A stretch of 32,000 nt of DNA from the NCBI GenBank assembly GCA_048886185.1, contig JBHLKY010000005.1:201520-233519 (forward strand). The letters run 5' to 3'. The translations under genes and the position numbers were made by a program. This stretch comes from Candidatus Hermodarchaeota archaeon (GTDB lineage: Archaea > Asgardarchaeota > Heimdallarchaeia > Hodarchaeales > Hodarchaeaceae). Below the pieces are notes generated by a model. It made no database searches. It saw nothing but the letters and a program-made list of their open reading frames with translations, and had not been told where the DNA came from. Shown here in pieces: positions 3,642 to 10,676 of the stretch (positions are counted from its first letter, which is position 1; each line of letters opens with the position of its first letter).

Positions 3642-4337
3642 ATGGGCTTTCTTGAAATCTTCATCCTTTCTTTTCTAGTGGCATTATCAGGAGCGATGTC
3701 ACCTGGCCCTTTACTCACCTATACAATATACAAGGCGCTTCAATCAAAAAGAAAAGCGTATTTTGCTGGGATTCTCATTTGGATTGGACATGCTATTTTA
3801 GAATTCTTATTAATGCTTATCCTGCTTATCGGCTTCTCTTCTTTTATTACTAACAAATCCGTTATTATCATAATTGGACTGTTAGGGGGTGGTGTGCTGA
3901 TTTTTTTCGGGGGGAGTCTCTTGAGAGACATATGGTTGAATAGTATTGATTTCAGCTTTTTATCACCAGAGGGAGGAATCAGTGAGACGCCTGAAAGTTC
4001 CCAAAACAAGATAGACCTACTAAACCAACCCACCCTAGGAGGGGTGTTAGTATCAATGTCGAATCCATATTGGTGGATCTGGTGGGCGGTTATTGGATTG
4101 AACTTTATGACACAGTTTTCAGTTGGGTTATTGAACCTAGAATTTTGGAGTTTTTTTCTGGGACATGAGCTAGGGGATTTTTTATGGTATGTGTCGATAG
4201 CTGGGATCCTTGGTTTTACTAATAAGTTATTAACGAGAAGGATCTATCTTGGTATTATTATTATTTGCAGCTTATTCATGATTTTTTTTGGCATATTCTT
4301 AGCTATTTCACCTATTCTCACAGTAGGAGACCTATAA
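3642..4337 (+). CDS. LysE/RhtB family translocator
   Basis: N-terminal ALSGAMSPGPL, SMSNPYWWIWW, FFLGHELGDFLWY and about six hydrophobic segments. Confidence 0.88.
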   Translation: MGFLEIFILSFLVALSGAMSPGPLLTYTIYKALQSKRKAYFAGILIWIGHAILEFLLMLILLIGFSSFITNKSVIIIIGLLGGGVLIFFGGSLLRDIWLNSIDFSFLSPEGGISETPESSQNKIDLLNQPTLGGVLVSMSNPYWWIWWAVIGLNFMTQFSVGLLNLEFWSFFLGHELGDFLWYVSIAGILGFTNKLLTRRIYLGIIIICSLFMIFFGIFLAISPILTVGDL

Positions 4338-4610
4338 GCTCTGTCCTGGTTGATAATCATCTACATCATCAAAAGCCACACATTTCTTTTCTGCAGCTAG
4401 TCTCATAAAATTGTTGTTGCCATTGATAGAAATAATCATATGAGAAGTAGATAACGGAATCTCAGCAATTTCTTGTATGAGTTTCATTTTTTTCATGAGG
4501 AGTTCGTTGTCATCAAAAGCAACTAAAGTAAGTTGAATTTCACTGTTTGCTATTGAAACAAATAAAACTAGCAGCAATAAACAAAAGAATAATGATTTGT
4601 AGTAGTTCAT
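4332..4610 (-). CDS. Putative small secreted hypothetical protein
   Basis: 92-aa ORF filling the gap between two genes, with a signal-peptide-like N-terminus (MNYYKSLFFCLLLLVLFVSIANS). No family recognised. Confidence 0.4.
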   Translation of the reverse strand: MNYYKSLFFCLLLLVLFVSIANSEIQLTLVAFDDNELLMKKMKLIQEIAEIPLSTSHMIISINGNNNFMRLAAEKKCVAFDDVDDYQPGQSL

Positions 4611-4739
4611 TTCATATAATGAAGAATAATAATTCTACTGATTTTTTCGTGCAATGAAGAGTCGGAAAATTGATTTAGCTAAAATAACTCAGAAGTATTA
4701 GGAAAAATTTTACTAATTTTAATGGAAATAAGTTGAGGA

Positions 4740-5702
4740 TTGAAAAAGGTTCTACTAATGAATTTCTATGAAGAAAGAAATCCACCAAATATATCCTTAT
4801 CAAAAGTATTGAATTTAATCCAACCATTTTTTCCAGAACTTAAAGCAGAGGAAATAAAGTTTTTATACCATGGCTCTTATAACGTTTACGAGATTAAAGA
4901 TGAGTTCATTTTTCGTTTCCCTGACAAAGTGTTTTTTGATAAAAAAGGATATGATTTAATTCAACGAGAACAGAAAATATTAATGTTAATCCAAGAGGAT
5001 ATTTCTATACAGATTCCTAAACCTCTCTATATGTCCTCTGATCCTACTCATCCATTTATTGGATATAAAAAGATAAATGGAACATCATTATCAAGGTGTT
5101 TTCATAAAACCACTCTTGATGATCATAAACACATTACAAAACAACTTGGGAAATTTCTATCTGAACTTCATTCTCAGAAAGTTTTCCAAAAAGTCTGTAT
5201 GGCTTTCAAAACTGAACAGGATTTTAATTCTTCTCAATATCAACATAATTGGCGAAATTATTTTGAAAAGGTAAAGAAAAAGGTATATCCGCTTCTAAAA
5301 TCAAAGCAAAAGCAGTGGGTGTCTCAAATTTTTAGTAATTTTCTCGAAAATGAGAGGAATTTTGATTTTATTTCTTGTGTCGTTCATCGAGATTTTGATG
5401 TCACGAACATACTTGTTGATCCTAAAACATTTTATGTGTGCGGGATAATAGATTTTGAGGATACTGGAGTTTATGACCCAGCTGCAGATTTTATATTCTA
5501 CAATGAAGGTGATCTGTTTCTGGATCATCTACTTGCAAATTATTCTAGAAGTAAGGATCTTTATTTTAGAGAGAGAATGAAATTTCTATACTGTCGTTCT
5601 GGGTTAGAATATATTTTAACTGGATTAGAATATAATGTTCCTAAAATGGTTGAATATGGACTCCAAATGACTAAAAAACGAATGAAGAGATTTCCAAGTT
5701 GA
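4740..5702 (+). CDS. Aminoglycoside phosphotransferase (APH)/choline kinase-like protein
   Basis: GSYNVYEI..FIFRFP N-lobe, Brenner-type VHRDF...NIL and metal-binding GIIDFED. Alternative start ATG 4758. Confidence 0.85.
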   Translation: MKKVLLMNFYEERNPPNISLSKVLNLIQPFFPELKAEEIKFLYHGSYNVYEIKDEFIFRFPDKVFFDKKGYDLIQREQKILMLIQEDISIQIPKPLYMSSDPTHPFIGYKKINGTSLSRCFHKTTLDDHKHITKQLGKFLSELHSQKVFQKVCMAFKTEQDFNSSQYQHNWRNYFEKVKKKVYPLLKSKQKQWVSQIFSNFLENERNFDFISCVVHRDFDVTNILVDPKTFYVCGIIDFEDTGVYDPAADFIFYNEGDLFLDHLLANYSRSKDLYFRERMKFLYCRSGLEYILTGLEYNVPKMVEYGLQMTKKRMKRFPS

Positions 5703-5737
5703 TAACTCATATCAATTTTCTTCTCTGTTTCCCATTA

Positions 5738-6646
5738 CTAAAAATTATAAAAATATTCTCCATCAGGAGTAAGATTGGTAATTGTTTTATTTTCAATGGG
5801 GTCTAAACTCCATTTAGCAGTCTGGTGGTTACTCTCAAAATGGTCGATGACTGTAGAAGAGCCTACTACACGAAAATCTTCTCTTTTTCCTAAAAATAAC
5901 TGATAATATGGCATAAAATTCCTTGATTTCTCACTTAAAGCAGAACATACGATTAAATGTGGCTTATTCTCTACTATTTCCAAGATTATTAGTTGCATCT
6001 GATAATTTATATCTTGTTTTTGATGTTGATCAATAACTTCTTGTAAAACAGGAATCCAAAAATCCTTAATATTGTGATTAGCGAACTCTCTTGCCTCTTT
6101 CAGTTTCTGAGATATATACCATGTTAGGATTTGAGTATCAGAAAATTCTCTAAGTTGGATTGTGTTTAATTGATATTCTGTCTTTAATATCCCATTTATA
6201 ATATTTGAATCAACAGTTCCATTATGAACAATGTATATCCTTTTTGAATTCTTATTATCATGAATAACTAATGGTTGAACTTGCTGAAAATCTACTGGCA
6301 TATTTACACTTGCTCTTCGTGCATGCGCTACTAAGATCTGGTTTGATAACTTAAGTAAAGGAGGTAACAAAAATGATCTGCTTAAACTAGTCGCTTTATA
6401 AGAGAATGCTGCATTTAAGTTTAAATTAGTCTGTTCCCACTCTATCTCATAATTCTCTTTAGTACCAATAGTCACAACACCCCATCCATCCTTATGAACA
6501 CAACTTTTCTTCGGTACACCATACACTTGGTTTAAATAATGATCATCCTTTGTGGATTTCAGCCAAGCTACAATCCAACTCTCCATTAAATGCCGAGAAG
6601 TCCGGCCCTTTTCCTGTTTAACCCAAAAAGACAATAAACGACACAT
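5738..6646 (-). CDS. Class II glutamine amidotransferase-like Ntn hydrolase (YafJ/DUG3/EgtC-like)
   Basis: N-terminal MCRLL (Cys2 nucleophile), HKDGWG, VAHARRAS, VHNGT and FSDTQ match the GATase-II motif order. Confidence 0.85.
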   Translation of the reverse strand: MCRLLSFWVKQEKGRTSRHLMESWIVAWLKSTKDDHYLNQVYGVPKKSCVHKDGWGVVTIGTKENYEIEWEQTNLNLNAAFSYKATSLSRSFLLPPLLKLSNQILVAHARRASVNMPVDFQQVQPLVIHDNKNSKRIYIVHNGTVDSNIINGILKTEYQLNTIQLREFSDTQILTWYISQKLKEAREFANHNIKDFWIPVLQEVIDQHQKQDINYQMQLIILEIVENKPHLIVCSALSEKSRNFMPYYQLFLGKREDFRVVGSSTVIDHFESNHQTAKWSLDPIENKTITNLTPDGEYFYNF

Positions 6647-6649
6647 AGT

Positions 6650-7030
6650 TTATTTGTTCCCATACTGTTTTATGAGTCCTTTTGAGGGATAATATGTATA
6701 AGTAGAAAATTTTATACCCTTTGGAATTGTTTTTACTTCTACAAGCATTCTGTGGTATAAAGAACCCTCTCCCTCAACTAAATCAATTTGTGTCCAATGA
6801 GCTTGAGTTAACTGAAAATAAATTTCTCCCAGAACATCAGACTGGCTATCTTCGACTATGAATGGAAATCCTAGCTCTGGAGGGGCAACTTTCCGATAAC
6901 CTACTAAAATCGCTTTCTCAAATTCTAACCCATGAAGAAGATAATTTCGACTAAACCCAGATTGTAGGGTTCCATATGTAAATAATCGATCACACTTCTC
7001 CTTAATAGGCTCAATCTGCTTTTCTGTCAT
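6650..7030 (-). CDS. Gamma-glutamylcyclotransferase (GGCT/AIG2-like, GGACT-like) family protein
   Basis: LFTYGTL motif, FPFIV..VLGEIY and IDLVEG (catalytic Glu position); 126 aa. Confidence 0.9.
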   Translation of the reverse strand: MTEKQIEPIKEKCDRLFTYGTLQSGFSRNYLLHGLEFEKAILVGYRKVAPPELGFPFIVEDSQSDVLGEIYFQLTQAHWTQIDLVEGEGSLYHRMLVEVKTIPKGIKFSTYTYYPSKGLIKQYGNK

Positions 7031-7068
7031 TTTATGACAATTTCTCCCTTTGAAAGATCATTTTTTTG

Positions 7069-8526
7069 TTAAAATCCAAATCCACCAAATAAGCTTCGTG
7101 ATAAGTAATCTGACCTGCTTAAGGCAACTAGAATTCGATCATTATCATCTAAAGGGATTTTTATACCTTGAATATCCAGGGTATTCGTAATTTTAATCCC
7201 TTGAAAAGTAGAAACAATATTGTCTTTCTCTTGATAAGTGAGCTTATAATCCACAGATAATATTCCTTGAACCTCTGTTCCGCGGGAAATGCCATATTTT
7301 CTACCCCGTTGATCAGTGATTGTCCTAGATTTATTCAATTGTACTACTGCATATATCTTTCCCTGCTGTCTTAGCTCTTCAATTTGTCTTGTCGTAAATT
7401 CAACTTCTAATTCATCCTGCTCAAAGTCAGTTCTAATTTTGGGAAGTTTTTGAATTTTAATCCCTAGAATGTCTTGATATTTTTCAGTTTCAACTATCCA
7501 GCGAGTAATACTATCTTGTAATGACTCCTCTTTGGTTTCACGAACGAAGCGGGCATTAACACCATAATAAACAGCCCTTTCCATATTAATTCGATGATTG
7601 GGATCAGGAATAATTTTATTTGCTGTGTACAAGTGAATTGCATGCATCGCTGAGACACAACACAAGTAAATTAAATCTAAGAGATATTCAACATCCTGTT
7701 GAACATCAAAAATACGCACTTCAACTCGATTTGTCATAAGAGAGGAGTCCTCATCCTCACCTATATTTGTCAATGGCCCTCTAGGTGTAATATCAACAAG
7801 TCTATCACCTCTAGGATTAGTTATTACCTTCTTCACAGTTTCTCCCGCTAAGCGTAATGTATATCGCATCTGTCCGTAGTATTGCATGGGAACTAATGCT
7901 GCAGCAGTTCTGGGAATTTGAATTTGTGAAAATCCATTTTCTTTTAAAACAGTTGAATTAGAGATTCGATTACTCGCAATATTTGTCCGAGTTCCTTGAA
8001 ATATTGGAGAATTTGCTGATAATGCAATTAATTCTGGAAGATAATTCCATAGATAGTCATGTACTGTAGCTAACTCATCTACATTCATGAATCCTCCAAT
8101 TCTTTGCACTGACACGTTAATATGTGTTCCACACATAGGATTGGGATCACTTTGAATTGGATGGATACTTTGAGAGAATATTTTGTATCCTAGCTGACTG
8201 GCAGCATCAGAAAGAAGTTTTCGGCCAGCATATACAGCCTCAGCAACATCCTTAGGGGGAAGGGGCAAGGTGACGTATTCGATTTGAGTAGGGGATGGTT
8301 CAGCATCTAATCCCCGAATTTTTAGTTGCAGAAAATTTAATCGTTTTGAATCCCGTTCTAGAATCTCTGCAGCACGTACCATCAATTCGTCCGCAGCATC
8401 CACTAAAGTGCCTTCTTTTGTAATAATCAAAAACTCTTCTTCAATACCACAGAGAACTTGATAATTTTTCCAAGGATCAGGATCCAAATCAGGATCTATT
8501 TTCTTCGATTTTCGATGTAAAAACAT
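7069..8526 (-). CDS. Glutamate--cysteine ligase family 2 (GCS2/YbdK-like carboxylate-amine ligase) with C-terminal extension
   Basis: CGIEEEFLII, QIEYVT, CGTHINV, LPELIALSANSP, DITPR and VEVRIFD are colinear with GCS2 motifs. About 118 extra C-terminal residues. ATG 8526 follows a GTGAT motif (track start TTG 8532). Confidence 0.85.
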   Translation of the reverse strand: MFLHRKSKKIDPDLDPDPWKNYQVLCGIEEEFLIITKEGTLVDAADELMVRAAEILERDSKRLNFLQLKIRGLDAEPSPTQIEYVTLPLPPKDVAEAVYAGRKLLSDAASQLGYKIFSQSIHPIQSDPNPMCGTHINVSVQRIGGFMNVDELATVHDYLWNYLPELIALSANSPIFQGTRTNIASNRISNSTVLKENGFSQIQIPRTAAALVPMQYYGQMRYTLRLAGETVKKVITNPRGDRLVDITPRGPLTNIGEDEDSSLMTNRVEVRIFDVQQDVEYLLDLIYLCCVSAMHAIHLYTANKIIPDPNHRINMERAVYYGVNARFVRETKEESLQDSITRWIVETEKYQDILGIKIQKLPKIRTDFEQDELEVEFTTRQIEELRQQGKIYAVVQLNKSRTITDQRGRKYGISRGTEVQGILSVDYKLTYQEKDNIVSTFQGIKITNTLDIQGIKIPLDDNDRILVALSRSDYLSRSLFGGFGF

Positions 8527-8801
8527 AATCAATCACAGATACTTCTAATACACAAAATAAGAGATTTTATTTTTTCCTCTAAATTTAAGCTTGATTGGTA
8601 ATTATTCATAAATTTTTATACTAAGGGCTTTATTAAATTGAATCAAGAGTACATTTATTCTACACTATTTATTTGTCTCCTATTGCCATTGAATGATTCT
8701 TTTTCTTTAATTGATAATAATTTATTTGGTCAGCCTTTTATAGAGCGATCATTTTTTCCAAGTAGATACTATGAAGACAATTTTATTGATAGTTGATGAT
8801 T

Positions 8802-10676
8802 ATGAAGCAGAATAGAAAAGGATTAATCGTACTGATAATCTCATTATTAGTACTTTCACTTCTAAATTTTTCCTCAATAACAGCCCCATTTTTTGGTCCC
8901 TATGATGTCAATCCAGACTATTATACTACTAACGTGGATTCTGGTGATTCACGAACGTATATATTTGATAGAATACGATTTCAGGATCATATGAGCGAAT
9001 TTGAGGAACGAGAGATGATGGTCATGATACCTTTCGAAGGAGAGGACATTGACATTAGTGTTTCTGAAGGTAGCAAAGTAACTATTGCAGTTATCAATGT
9101 TAATGACACTCACATTGAATCCCAGTGGGTATGGTCTCTTATCAATGGTAGCGTTTTCAATTGCGATCCAATATATTTCGATAAATCTTCCCTTCTAATC
9201 GATGACCATCAAGGATATGGTCCTAGGATGGTTTTTACCACCAATGTTTCTTTGATTGAAGAAGTGTATAGTAGCACATCTTGGAATTATGAGATCAACA
9301 TGGACCGAGTACGGATTTTCAATGAATCATGGGAAGATCCTTATAGCTCCCGAGAAGAATATGAATATGACCTGTCAACAGGATTTCTAACAAATCTGCG
9401 GATTTCATTTGAAGGTCCTGATTCTCGAATGGAAATTGAAATACGTGAGACTGAAACATGGAATCCTGATTGGTTTGAACTTGGTGTAAATGTTGGTGAT
9501 ACTAATACATACGTCCTCAGTAAGATGACTTGGTATGATGGATATGATGGTACTTACCATCATGACACCTATTTCCTTGTTGTTGTTGATGGAAATCCAA
9601 TATTTTTACTTCTTCATCAAGGAGACGAGATAGTCGCCGAAGTAATTAATACAGCTGGTGATTTCGTCGAATTACAGTTAACTTTCAAACAACTCAAAGA
9701 GGACAAAGTAACTATTGATGAAAATCCCTATAGGATTGATAAAAGCACATTTTATGCTCCTAGAGATCTCGGAGCACCATTACTAATGACTACTAATCGA
9801 ACAACTTGGGAATATGCTGCTCCCGGTGATGTTGTATTAGGGGAAGATGTAGTAAAGTTTCATAATGAAAACACTTCTTCAGATGGTCAATGGTTCGATA
9901 TGATGGAAGGCGCGTGGAATCTCACGACTGGGTGGTTACAACGCTTTTACACTGTGAAGATTGAAGACCCAGAAGGCGACAAAATAATTCAACACGAAAT
10001 GGAAATATTGGATGTTGATTTAATTAAACCAGAAGGACCAGCAGAATTTATAAGTGTTTCCACAGGGGATTCTATAACTTATGAGTTTAAAGAGATCCAA
10101 ACAGCTGATAACGATAAAATAAATATGACATTTCCCGATCAACAGATCTGGATTCAAGCTGGTGATACAATGACCGTAAAAATCAAAGGTGTCCAGGGTT
10201 CTTTTGTTACAGTTGAATTGACAATTGATTCAGCAATAGATGGAGAGGTAGTGGTTGATCCAATTACTTTTGATATCACAAAATTTGACGAAGGACCACA
10301 ATTCCTTCTACCTACTGAAAAACAGATGATAGAAGATTTTTTCAAAGACACACCAGATGTTGAATTAATTTTCGATGATACTAAAAGTGCTACTATCACA
10401 ACCAAATTTACGAACGGTGATAGGGAATATCATCAAAAACGTGTTTTTGATCTTGAAACAGGATGGCTCATCGAATACAATCAAACCGTTTTCGAAAAAG
10501 GGGATCTTGTTGAAAAAGTCTATGCTATTTCTACTGACATTTCCATTGACACATCAGAACCAGAGGCAACAGGAACAGGCCCAGAAGATATCGTAGAGCT
10601 TACTCCAATTCCACTCTTCCCAGTGATTCTTTCCCTGATAATAGTTGTGGGGTTACTTCGGAAGAAGAATGGGTAA
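8802..10676 (+). CDS. Secreted, C-terminally membrane-anchored surface protein with three ~185-aa repeats
   Basis: Signal peptide MKQNRKGLIVLIISLLVLSLL; three units starting (V/S)xxGDxxTY; C-terminal hydrophobic helix and basic tail (LRKKNG). Start could be 8793, 8796 or 8802. Confidence 0.85.
   Translation: MKQNRKGLIVLIISLLVLSLLNFSSITAPFFGPYDVNPDYYTTNVDSGDSRTYIFDRIRFQDHMSEFEEREMMVMIPFEGEDIDISVSEGSKVTIAVINVNDTHIESQWVWSLINGSVFNCDPIYFDKSSLLIDDHQGYGPRMVFTTNVSLIEEVYSSTSWNYEINMDRVRIFNESWEDPYSSREEYEYDLSTGFLTNLRISFEGPDSRMEIEIRETETWNPDWFELGVNVGDTNTYVLSKMTWYDGYDGTYHHDTYFLVVVDGNPIFLLLHQGDEIVAEVINTAGDFVELQLTFKQLKEDKVTIDENPYRIDKSTFYAPRDLGAPLLMTTNRTTWEYAAPGDVVLGEDVVKFHNENTSSDGQWFDMMEGAWNLTTGWLQRFYTVKIEDPEGDKIIQHEMEILDVDLIKPEGPAEFISVSTGDSITYEFKEIQTADNDKINMTFPDQQIWIQAGDTMTVKIKGVQGSFVTVELTIDSAIDGEVVVDPITFDITKFDEGPQFLLPTEKQMIEDFFKDTPDVELIFDDTKSATITTKFTNGDREYHQKRVFDLETGWLIEYNQTVFEKGDLVEKVYAISTDISIDTSEPEATGTGPEDIVELTPIPLFPVILSLIIVVGLLRKKNG

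Follow-up and report, generated by a model that had tools for sequence, protein, structure and literature searches.

Introduction

Three adjacent genes of an Asgard archaeon raise the question of what an ATP-dependent ligase may be making when its gene is followed by those for two enzymes that would take the product apart. The genes lie in a stretch of 32,000 nucleotides (hereafter the window; positions 201,520 to 233,519 of contig JBHLKY010000005.1, assembly GCA_048886185.1) of Candidatus Hermodarchaeota archaeon, an Asgard metagenome-assembled genome (MAG) of 4.84 Mb in 75 contigs that is 96% complete. All on the minus strand, they encode a predicted ligase of the GCS2 family (7069..8526; 485 aa), a GGACT/AIG2-like gamma-glutamyl(amine) cyclotransferase (GGCT; 6650..7030; 126 aa) and a stand-alone class-II glutamine amidotransferase (GATase)-like hydrolase of the N-terminal nucleophile (Ntn) type with a putative Cys2 nucleophile (5738..6646; 302 aa). 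The trio and its variants in related genomes constitute a real module, as the folds, the catalytic residues and the tight, recurrent linkage of the genes confirm. We propose, with a confidence only somewhat above even, that the operon carries out the ATP-dependent gamma-glutamylation of a small amine, which is followed by removal of the glutamyl group by hydrolysis or cyclisation.

Gene Organization

The initial annotation had described three co-oriented genes with gaps of 38 and 3 nt and intact motifs, and had assigned them to the GCS2, GGCT and Ntn families. The minus-strand open reading frames (ORFs), the sequence and the alignments bear out the former, and the Pfam matches given below bear out the latter. 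The 38 nt between the ligase stop codon and the ATG of the GGCT gene (7031-7068) contain a GGGAG-like stretch, while 3 nt (6647-6649) separate the GGCT stop codon from the ATG of the Ntn gene. In the ORF listing the ligase frame extends to a TTG at 8532 (7069..8532, 487 aa), but the ATG at 8526 appears to be the better start, because the ligase homologues begin with MLFH or MFLH. The 266-nt, AT-rich spacer 5' of the ligase gene (8527..8792), which separates it from a divergent gene, is presumed to be the promoter region of the three-gene unit; its minus strand carries a TATA-like tataaaaa at 8620-8613 and a ttaaattt at approximately 8588-8581.

The Ligase Family

The predicted ligase consists of a core with a GCS2/YbdK-type fold (approximately residues 20-365) and a family-specific C-terminal domain. 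It matches Pfam GCS2 (PF04107) with an E-value of 1e-10 (41.9 bits, cut-off 21), the matched part being residues 132-187 only. At E<=0.01, the Pfam scan gave no ligase family other than GCS2; Amidoligase_2 was not matched. In Foldseek searches with the AlphaFold2 model (pLDDT 84), the best match is YbdK (1tt4/1r8g; E 3e-14, TM 0.63 over ~365 columns), behind which rank glutamine synthetases, gamma-glutamylmethylamide synthetase and the Pup ligase PafA (4bjr, E 1e-7). The model thus gives the core a YbdK-like fold of the glutamine synthetase/glutamate-cysteine ligase (GS/GCS) type. Twelve residues (E29, E31, E76, Q81, E83, H122, H135, R187, R249, R267, E269 and R271) are invariant in an alignment of 31 family members with a mean column identity of 55%, and this set conforms to the acidic/His/Arg pattern that would be expected for the metal and ATP sites of GS/GCS-fold ATP-dependent ligases. 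A complex prediction for the ligase with the Ntn protein scored 0.00, returned no verdict and weighs neither way.

The ligase is not an orthologue of YbdK or GshA, which is ruled out by scores far under each curated NCBIfam cut-off (TIGR02050 and NF010039-45; best scores of 59.4 versus 176.4 and 51.2 versus 371 bits). When 1.84 billion representative proteins were searched with a profile, ~11 full-length 50%-identity clusters of the ligase were returned at E < 1e-118, after which the E-values fall off a cliff to ~1e-19, where the generic GCS2 proteins begin. The ligase family is small, tight and separate from generic GCS2 proteins.

The C-terminal beta-rich domain (approximately residues 365-485; 7072..7434, minus strand) is ~120 aa in length, aligns in all 31 family members and ends in an aromatic-Gly tail, LFGGFGF. 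Modelled alone (pLDDT 86), it is predicted to form a small SH3/Sm-like beta-barrel that is followed by a helix. Foldseek found no match to it in the PDB at E<=0.001, a search of the protein atlas gave no usable match, and in a wide VIA-align comparison the highest Z was 4.9, the matches being generic small barrels of the SH3/Sm-like type, among them SH3b and the C-terminal domains of TrmB and BirA. The modelled domain appears to be without a clear structural relative, and its function is not readable from such weak matches.

Distribution of the Ligase

The ligase was found in 30 of the 201 sampled genomes of the phylum, in 11 of 59 genera and in four of the ten genomes of its own genus, and because of this patchiness it is an accessory gene. 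When one genome was scanned for each of 185,579 species, 75 ligase loci were obtained, nearly all of which carry Asgard labels (Promethearchaeota, Hod-, Heimdall-, Thor-, Sif-, Borr-, Njord- and Baldrarchaeota); several MAGs labelled Nitrososphaerota or Crenarchaeota are identical contigs that GTDB assigns to the phylum of this genome. The family is almost confined to Asgard archaea, plus a few allied MAGs. The closest homologues (~80% identity) are labelled Hodarchaeales, Hodarchaeota and Heimdallarchaeota.

The Cyclotransferase and the Ntn Hydrolase

The GGCT matches Pfam GGACT (PF06094) with an E-value of 2.6e-13 (51 bits, cut-off 22.8). Among 42 ligase-linked homologues, its motifs Y19-G-T-L22 (YGTL) and E86-G-E88 are conserved to 90% or more, and its closest relative in a PDB sequence search is the AIG2-like protein 2jqv, a weak match at 4e-4. 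GGACT-fold enzymes require a free alpha-amine to release 5-oxoproline; their classical substrate is gamma-Glu-epsilon-Lys, and the GGACT/AIG2 type favours gamma-glutamyl-amines over alpha-amino acids.

The Ntn protein matches Pfam GATase_6 (PF13522) with an E-value of 1.5e-7 (31.9 bits, cut-off 27). The nearest clusters in the protein atlas are archaeal GATase_4/6 proteins, and a PDB sequence search gave a weak match to PurF at 0.056. In 19 sequences the motifs M1-C2, AHARRAS (with R110), HNG (141-143) and SDTQ (with D170) are invariant or nearly so, and the N-terminal MCRLL is kept in 17 of the 19. The ESM Atlas entry of this protein starts at residue 5 (read as Met), and such a gene call would remove the Cys2 nucleophile. 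We take R110, N142-G143 and D170 to be the equivalents of R73, N98-G99 and D123 of GlmS/PurF, which hold the alpha-carboxylate and the alpha-amino group of glutamine. The protein is therefore predicted to be a class-II GATase in its active site, with an N-terminal Cys and an Arg/Asn-Gly/Asp glutamine pocket. It is not an EgtC equivalog, as its score against the EgtC model TIGR03442 is 19.8 bits with a cut-off of 218.65.

The distribution of the Ntn protein follows that of the ligase. It was found in two of the 201 sampled Asgard genomes, in both directly beside the ligase, and at least 10 of its 25 homologues among 5.8 billion proteins are on contigs that agree in length with those of ligase matches. 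These counts support the functional linkage of the genes that the initial annotation had claimed.

Conservation and Exchange of Partner Genes

ORFs were called in the window and in 72 of the 75 species loci and were labelled with hidden Markov models built from the first neighbour set. Partners were counted within two gene positions of the 68 full-length ligases, i.e., those of 67 species loci and the window. In 67 of these 68 loci, the ligase gene has a GGCT and/or an amide hydrolase gene within two genes. The partners are a class-I GATase and a GGCT (28 loci), an ATP-grasp ligase and an FGase-like hydrolase (11), a class-I GATase alone (10), the exact trio with GGCT and Ntn (7), an FGase alone (6), a GGCT alone (4) and an FGase with a GGCT (1); the one locus with no partner is on a 1.5-kb contig. 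Overall, GGCT is found in 40 loci, the class-I GATase in 38, the FGase-like hydrolase in 18 and the Ntn protein in 7, and the GGCT gene lies between the ligase gene and the GATase gene in 35 loci (28 with class-I GATase and 7 with Ntn). The class-I GATase, whose Cys-His-Glu triad is intact, takes the place of the Ntn protein in Loki-type genomes. An FGase-like hydrolase is found instead in Sif/Borr, Njord and Baldr genomes, where it is accompanied in the Njord and Baldr types by the ATP-grasp ligase; the module genes overlap in Njord-type loci. One FGase partner has a weak match to poly-gamma-glutamate hydrolase, and the Njord-type ATP-grasp partner has weak matches of the TTL/RimK type. The hydrolase is hence replaced by unrelated folds beside an orthologous ligase.

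Partner types track the clades of the ligase. In a maximum-likelihood ligase tree, the set with GGCT and Ntn is a single clade of Hodarchaeales/Heimdall sequences (support 99/94), which is nested among relatives with GGCT only and has as its sister group the Loki-type clade, where class-I GATase is the partner; the FGase types are deeper. Adjacency of ligase and partner persists at 31-80% ligase identity while the fold of the partner changes. The initial annotation had made co-conservation of the trio across archaea a test of the system. For the exact trio this fails, because its gene order recurs in 7 species loci that belong to one monophyletic clade, but it holds for the broader theme of a ligase with GGCT and/or an amide hydrolase. 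The exact trio is a local variant, whereas the association of the ligase with GGCT and/or an amide hydrolase is family-wide.

Additional genes are linked to the module in some of the related genomes. Of the seven Ntn-type loci, four have a gene for a GlcF-like Fe-S/CCG protein immediately upstream of the ligase gene and in the same direction, and in three of the four it is joined by genes for a second CCG protein and a GlcD-like FAD oxidase. Such genes of the close relatives were seen at L067:398-3956 (+), L068, L069 and L070. Approximately 22 Loki-type loci have HgdC/HgdA/HgdB-like genes of the 2-hydroxyacyl-CoA dehydratase type at the same position and in the same direction (for example, L038:4488-7886 (+)). 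The window itself has neither the GlcD/GlcF-like nor the Hgd-like set. Consequently, the claim that no substrate-defining gene accompanies the trio stands for the window but not for its kin with GlcD/GlcF-like genes or for the Loki-type kin with HgdCAB-like genes.

In Sifarchaeum and Borrarchaeum MAGs, the FGase-like partner is divergent from the ligase and is C-terminally fused to an archaeal histone fold (L044:6960-7859(-), L046:446-1303(-), L047:6951-7862(-) and L048:9632-10477(+); PF00808 at ~1e-9, NCBIfam archaeal histone 53 bits, cut-off 50). The fusion is restricted to these two families and is not found in the clade of the window. A Heimdall MAG (L043:9566-10486) has a weak MTH865-like domain where the Sif/Borr FGase has the histone fold, and one metagenome contig has a separate histone gene between the FGase and ligase genes.

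Proposed Function

The gamma-amide that class-I and class-II GATases hydrolyse belongs to a glutamyl group with a free alpha-amino and a free alpha-carboxyl group. From what is known of these families, the shared denominator of the partner enzymes would be an L-gamma-glutamyl amide. The Ntn and GGACT-type enzymes both fit a free L-gamma-glutamyl head group, one FGase partner has the weak match to poly-gamma-glutamate hydrolase, and a GCS2-fold ligase would make such an amide from glutamate, ATP and an amine. We propose that a carboxylate, which is most likely the gamma-carboxyl of free L-glutamate, is activated by the ligase at the expense of ATP and is then joined to an amine. The Ntn enzyme may hydrolyse the gamma-glutamyl amide, by which glutamate would be returned, and the GGACT-type enzyme may take the glutamyl group off in a water-independent cyclisation that yields 5-oxoproline. 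The 5-oxoproline could be reopened and recycled through the product of a hydantoinase-B/oxoprolinase-like gene (Hydantoinase_B, E 1.4e-191) at another place in the genome; a 5-oxoprolinase of the PxpA type was not found in the genome search. The glutamyl group would be a temporary handle, a protecting group or a buffered store for the amine, and the three genes could form a self-contained, reversible cycle. We infer that glutamate is the donor and a small molecule the acceptor, and that the steps follow in the order given here.

A ligase that is encoded with a hydrolase of its own product is plausible because the aniline, putrescine and ergothioneine routes all pair a GS/GCS-fold ligase with a GATase-type hydrolase. 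The GlcD/GlcF-like and Hgd-like sets of the related loci both act on substrates of the 2-hydroxy-acid type. As a lead only, they would fit an amine-bearing acid that is gamma-glutamylated, transformed and then deprotected.

Several observations weigh against gamma-glutamylation of a small amine. A ligase co-encoded with two product-destroying enzymes looks futile unless an intermediate step lies between them, and the window has no gene for such a step. FGase-type enzymes classically cleave N-acyl-glutamate rather than gamma-glutamyl amides, and the class-I GATase partners reach 62-72 bits against glutaminase subunits (GMP synthase A) but 27-34 bits against Peptidase_C26. The chemistry of the ligase may differ from that of GCS2 enzymes, because ~55 residues match the profile and the scores are far below the curated YbdK/GshA cut-offs. 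Finally, the conserved C-terminal barrel, together with the FGase-histone fusion of the Sif/Borr MAGs, could indicate a macromolecular target.

Alternative Functions

The GATases may instead be glutaminase subunits that feed ammonia to the ligase, which would make the module a glutamine-dependent amidoligase (R-COOH + Gln + ATP -> R-CONH2 + Glu). Such a function would explain why class-I and class-II GATases, the classical ammonia donors, replace each other in orthologous operons, why the class-I partner scores best, among curated models, against the glutaminase subunits of GMP synthase, carbamoyl-phosphate synthetase and anthranilate synthase, and why the Ntn protein retains a complete glutamine pocket. 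We nevertheless consider it unlikely, as the GGCT, which has no role in amidation, sits between the ligase and the GATase in so many loci and as other clades use an FGase-like metallohydrolase rather than a glutaminase; to our knowledge, no GS/GCS-fold ligase acts with a glutaminase subunit. Reversible modification of proteins or peptides deserves a similar degree of doubt. Here the ligase would add glutamate or join Glu and Lys side chains, its barrel would recognise a macromolecule, the Ntn protein, class-I GATase and FGase would be erasers, and GGACT would recycle gamma-Glu-epsilon-Lys after proteolysis. PafA has the same fold, the SH3/Sm-like domain and aromatic C-terminal tail are conserved in the ligase, gamma-Glu-epsilon-Lys is the classical substrate of GGACT, and the histone-fold fusion and the TTL/RimK-type matches of the ATP-grasp partner point in the same direction. 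Set against these are the weakness of all structural matches of the C-terminal domain (Z <= 4.9), the confinement of the histone fusion to two families outside the clade of the window, and both removal enzymes, which look fitted to a free gamma-glutamyl head group as in small-molecule enzymes. No conserved ORF of <100 aa, such as a Pup-like tag gene ending in Glu/Gln, is common to the inspected loci, and analogous bacterial neighbourhoods have been read as metabolite pathways (Iyer et al.; PMC2588565). There is only a slim chance that the ligase writes gamma-glutamyl marks on proteins with its barrel as the reader of the target, that the Ntn protein, class-I GATase and FGase erase them, with the Sif/Borr eraser tethered to chromatin via its histone fold, and that GGACT clears gamma-Glu-epsilon-Lys.

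Ordinary thiol metabolism, in which a divergent GshA makes gamma-Glu-Cys that a ChaC-like GGCT and a Dug3-like Ntn enzyme degrade to release cysteine, is also improbable, and more so than amidation. All three enzyme types act in eukaryotes on glutathione or gamma-Glu-Cys, the sole sequence matches of the ligase are to GCS2/GshA-type models, and haloarchaeal GshA is in the same Pfam family; GshA-type InterPro matches in Asgard archaea have been noted in a review but not studied further there (PMC7278568). The ligase nevertheless scores far under the GshA equivalog cut-offs and is divided from generic GCS2 proteins by the cliff described above, its presence in less than half of the genomes of the genus suits an accessory role more than that of a main redox buffer, and the GGCT is of the type that prefers gamma-glutamyl-amines. 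The annotation "Glutamate-cysteine ligase family protein" on these Asgard genes is not evidence for synthesis of gamma-Glu-Cys or glutathione. The least credible alternative, to which we give very little weight, is that no pathway unites the three genes and that they are mere neighbours. Only close kin within one narrow clade have the exact trio, and synteny alone might suffice to keep it there, but the adjacency of ligase and partner across widely diverged ligases despite the change of partner fold, the lack of any Ntn protein observed apart from the ligase, the short gaps and the gene overlap in Njord-type loci all argue for a common pathway. Two further candidates were rejected. The initial annotation had held out ergothioneine synthesis, with egtB/egtD elsewhere in the genome, as another explanation for the pair of ligase and Ntn genes; no match to TIGR03440 or TIGR03438 (EgtB/EgtD) was found in the 96%-complete genome, which together with the low EgtC score rules out an ergothioneine cluster. 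An anti-phage defence or phage auxiliary module is likewise rejected, as there were no PADLOC matches and the only PHROG match was that of the GGCT, to a generic phage GGCT family.

Comparison with Known Systems

As the initial annotation had stated, there is a bacterial precedent for such neighbourhoods. Bacterial carboxylate-amine ligases are found beside a GATase-like thiol peptidase or an Aig2 GGCT, for which peptide or glutathione-like metabolites were predicted (Iyer, Burroughs & Aravind 2008, PMC2588565). These neighbourhoods share with the Asgard module a GS/GCS-fold ligase beside a GATase-type hydrolase and/or GGCT and the lack of a tag protein. The Asgard module differs from them in being archaeal, in its ligase family (GCS2, not Amidoligase_2), in uniting GGCT and GATase in one operon and in its FGase/ATP-grasp variants. 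The annotation's other statement, that no characterised archaeal version was known, agrees with our literature search, in which neither such a version nor a paper characterising the Asgard ligase family was found.

A GAT-like enzyme of the aniline and 1-naphthylamine systems acts on the ligase's own product, gamma-glutamylanilide, and holds it at a safe level by hydrolysis (PMC11335346). AtdA1/AtdA2 and NpaA1/A2, which act on aryl amines, and PuuA/PuuD, which act on putrescine, resemble the proposed Asgard module in that an amine receives a gamma-glutamyl group from the ligase and the product is hydrolysed by a co-encoded enzyme with a GATase fold; they differ in that their ligases are related to GS type I, an operonic oxygenase or dehydrogenase acts on the glutamylated intermediate, GGCT is lacking and the hosts are aerobic bacteria. 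The ligases of the YbdK/GCS2 type (E. coli YbdK 1r8g, haloarchaeal GshA and EgtA) have the same fold and the same invariant acidic/His/Arg pattern as the Asgard ligase, which is set apart by its 55-residue profile match, its sub-cut-off scores, its added ~120-aa barrel and its place in a separate family. Ergothioneine synthesis by EgtA/EgtC similarly joins a GCS2 ligase with an amidohydrolase of the class-II (Ntn) type, by which the glutamyl handle is trimmed away in a later step, but it is without GGCT and requires EgtB/EgtD, which this genome appears to lack. Pupylation by PafA/Dop likewise employs an enzyme of the GS/GCS fold that bears an additional C-terminal domain, and follows a write/erase logic on a gamma-glutamyl isopeptide, whereas here there is no Pup-like ORF or proteasome linkage and the eraser is not a ligase paralogue, so that the likeness is at the level of the fold only.

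The logic of a ligase with GATase/GGCT is thus known already, from bacterial predictions and characterised gamma-glutamylation pathways. What is new is the ligase family with its extra domain, its near-restriction to Asgard archaea and the four-way displacement of its partners. The comparative evidence predicts a glutamyl amide product and its removal by four unrelated kinds of enzymes that were recruited beside the ligase. The acceptor could be a new archaeal metabolite, could reflect the use of protecting groups by anaerobes in their amine metabolism or could be a protein mark. The last is less likely than the metabolite routes and, if true, far more important; the archaea most closely related to eukaryotes would then possess a system for reversibly modifying proteins. 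For direct biochemical comparison, the exchange of partners among Ntn, class-I GATase, FGase, ATP-grasp and the histone-fold fusion provides a natural set of variants.

Other Associated Genes

Downstream of the Ntn gene and convergent with it is the gene for an APH-family phosphotransferase (4740..5702, plus strand; Pfam APH, 2.2e-18), a candidate accessory gene whose membership of the module is uncertain. An APH-like kinase gene is convergent with the Ntn gene in six of the seven Ntn-type loci, which may be plain synteny, as these loci are close kin. The gene divergent from the ligase encodes a 627-aa protein (8793-10676, plus strand) without a Pfam or NCBIfam match.

Other genes associated with the ligase include one for a GH77 4-alpha-glucanotransferase (PF02446, E 1.8e-182), which is inserted between the ligase and GGCT genes in two species loci, L073 and L114, that are without an adjacent hydrolase (4207-5754 (-) in L032, the contig of L073). 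A literature search on the module of FGase, ATP-grasp and GCS ligase and on MJ0043 found nothing relevant. An archaeal MAG (L061:4739-8927 (+)) has a TIGR00375/MJ0043_C protein (384 bits) upstream of the ligase and Amidohydro_2 and FGase proteins downstream of it. The genome that holds the window has on its contig C15 (L142:3211-6180 (-)) another gene whose 989-aa product matches GCS2 weakly (22.4 bits). Genes for a 463-aa protein without a family and for a protein with VWA and CDC48_N domains lie in one co-directional run with it, and it may belong to a second, unrelated ligase system.

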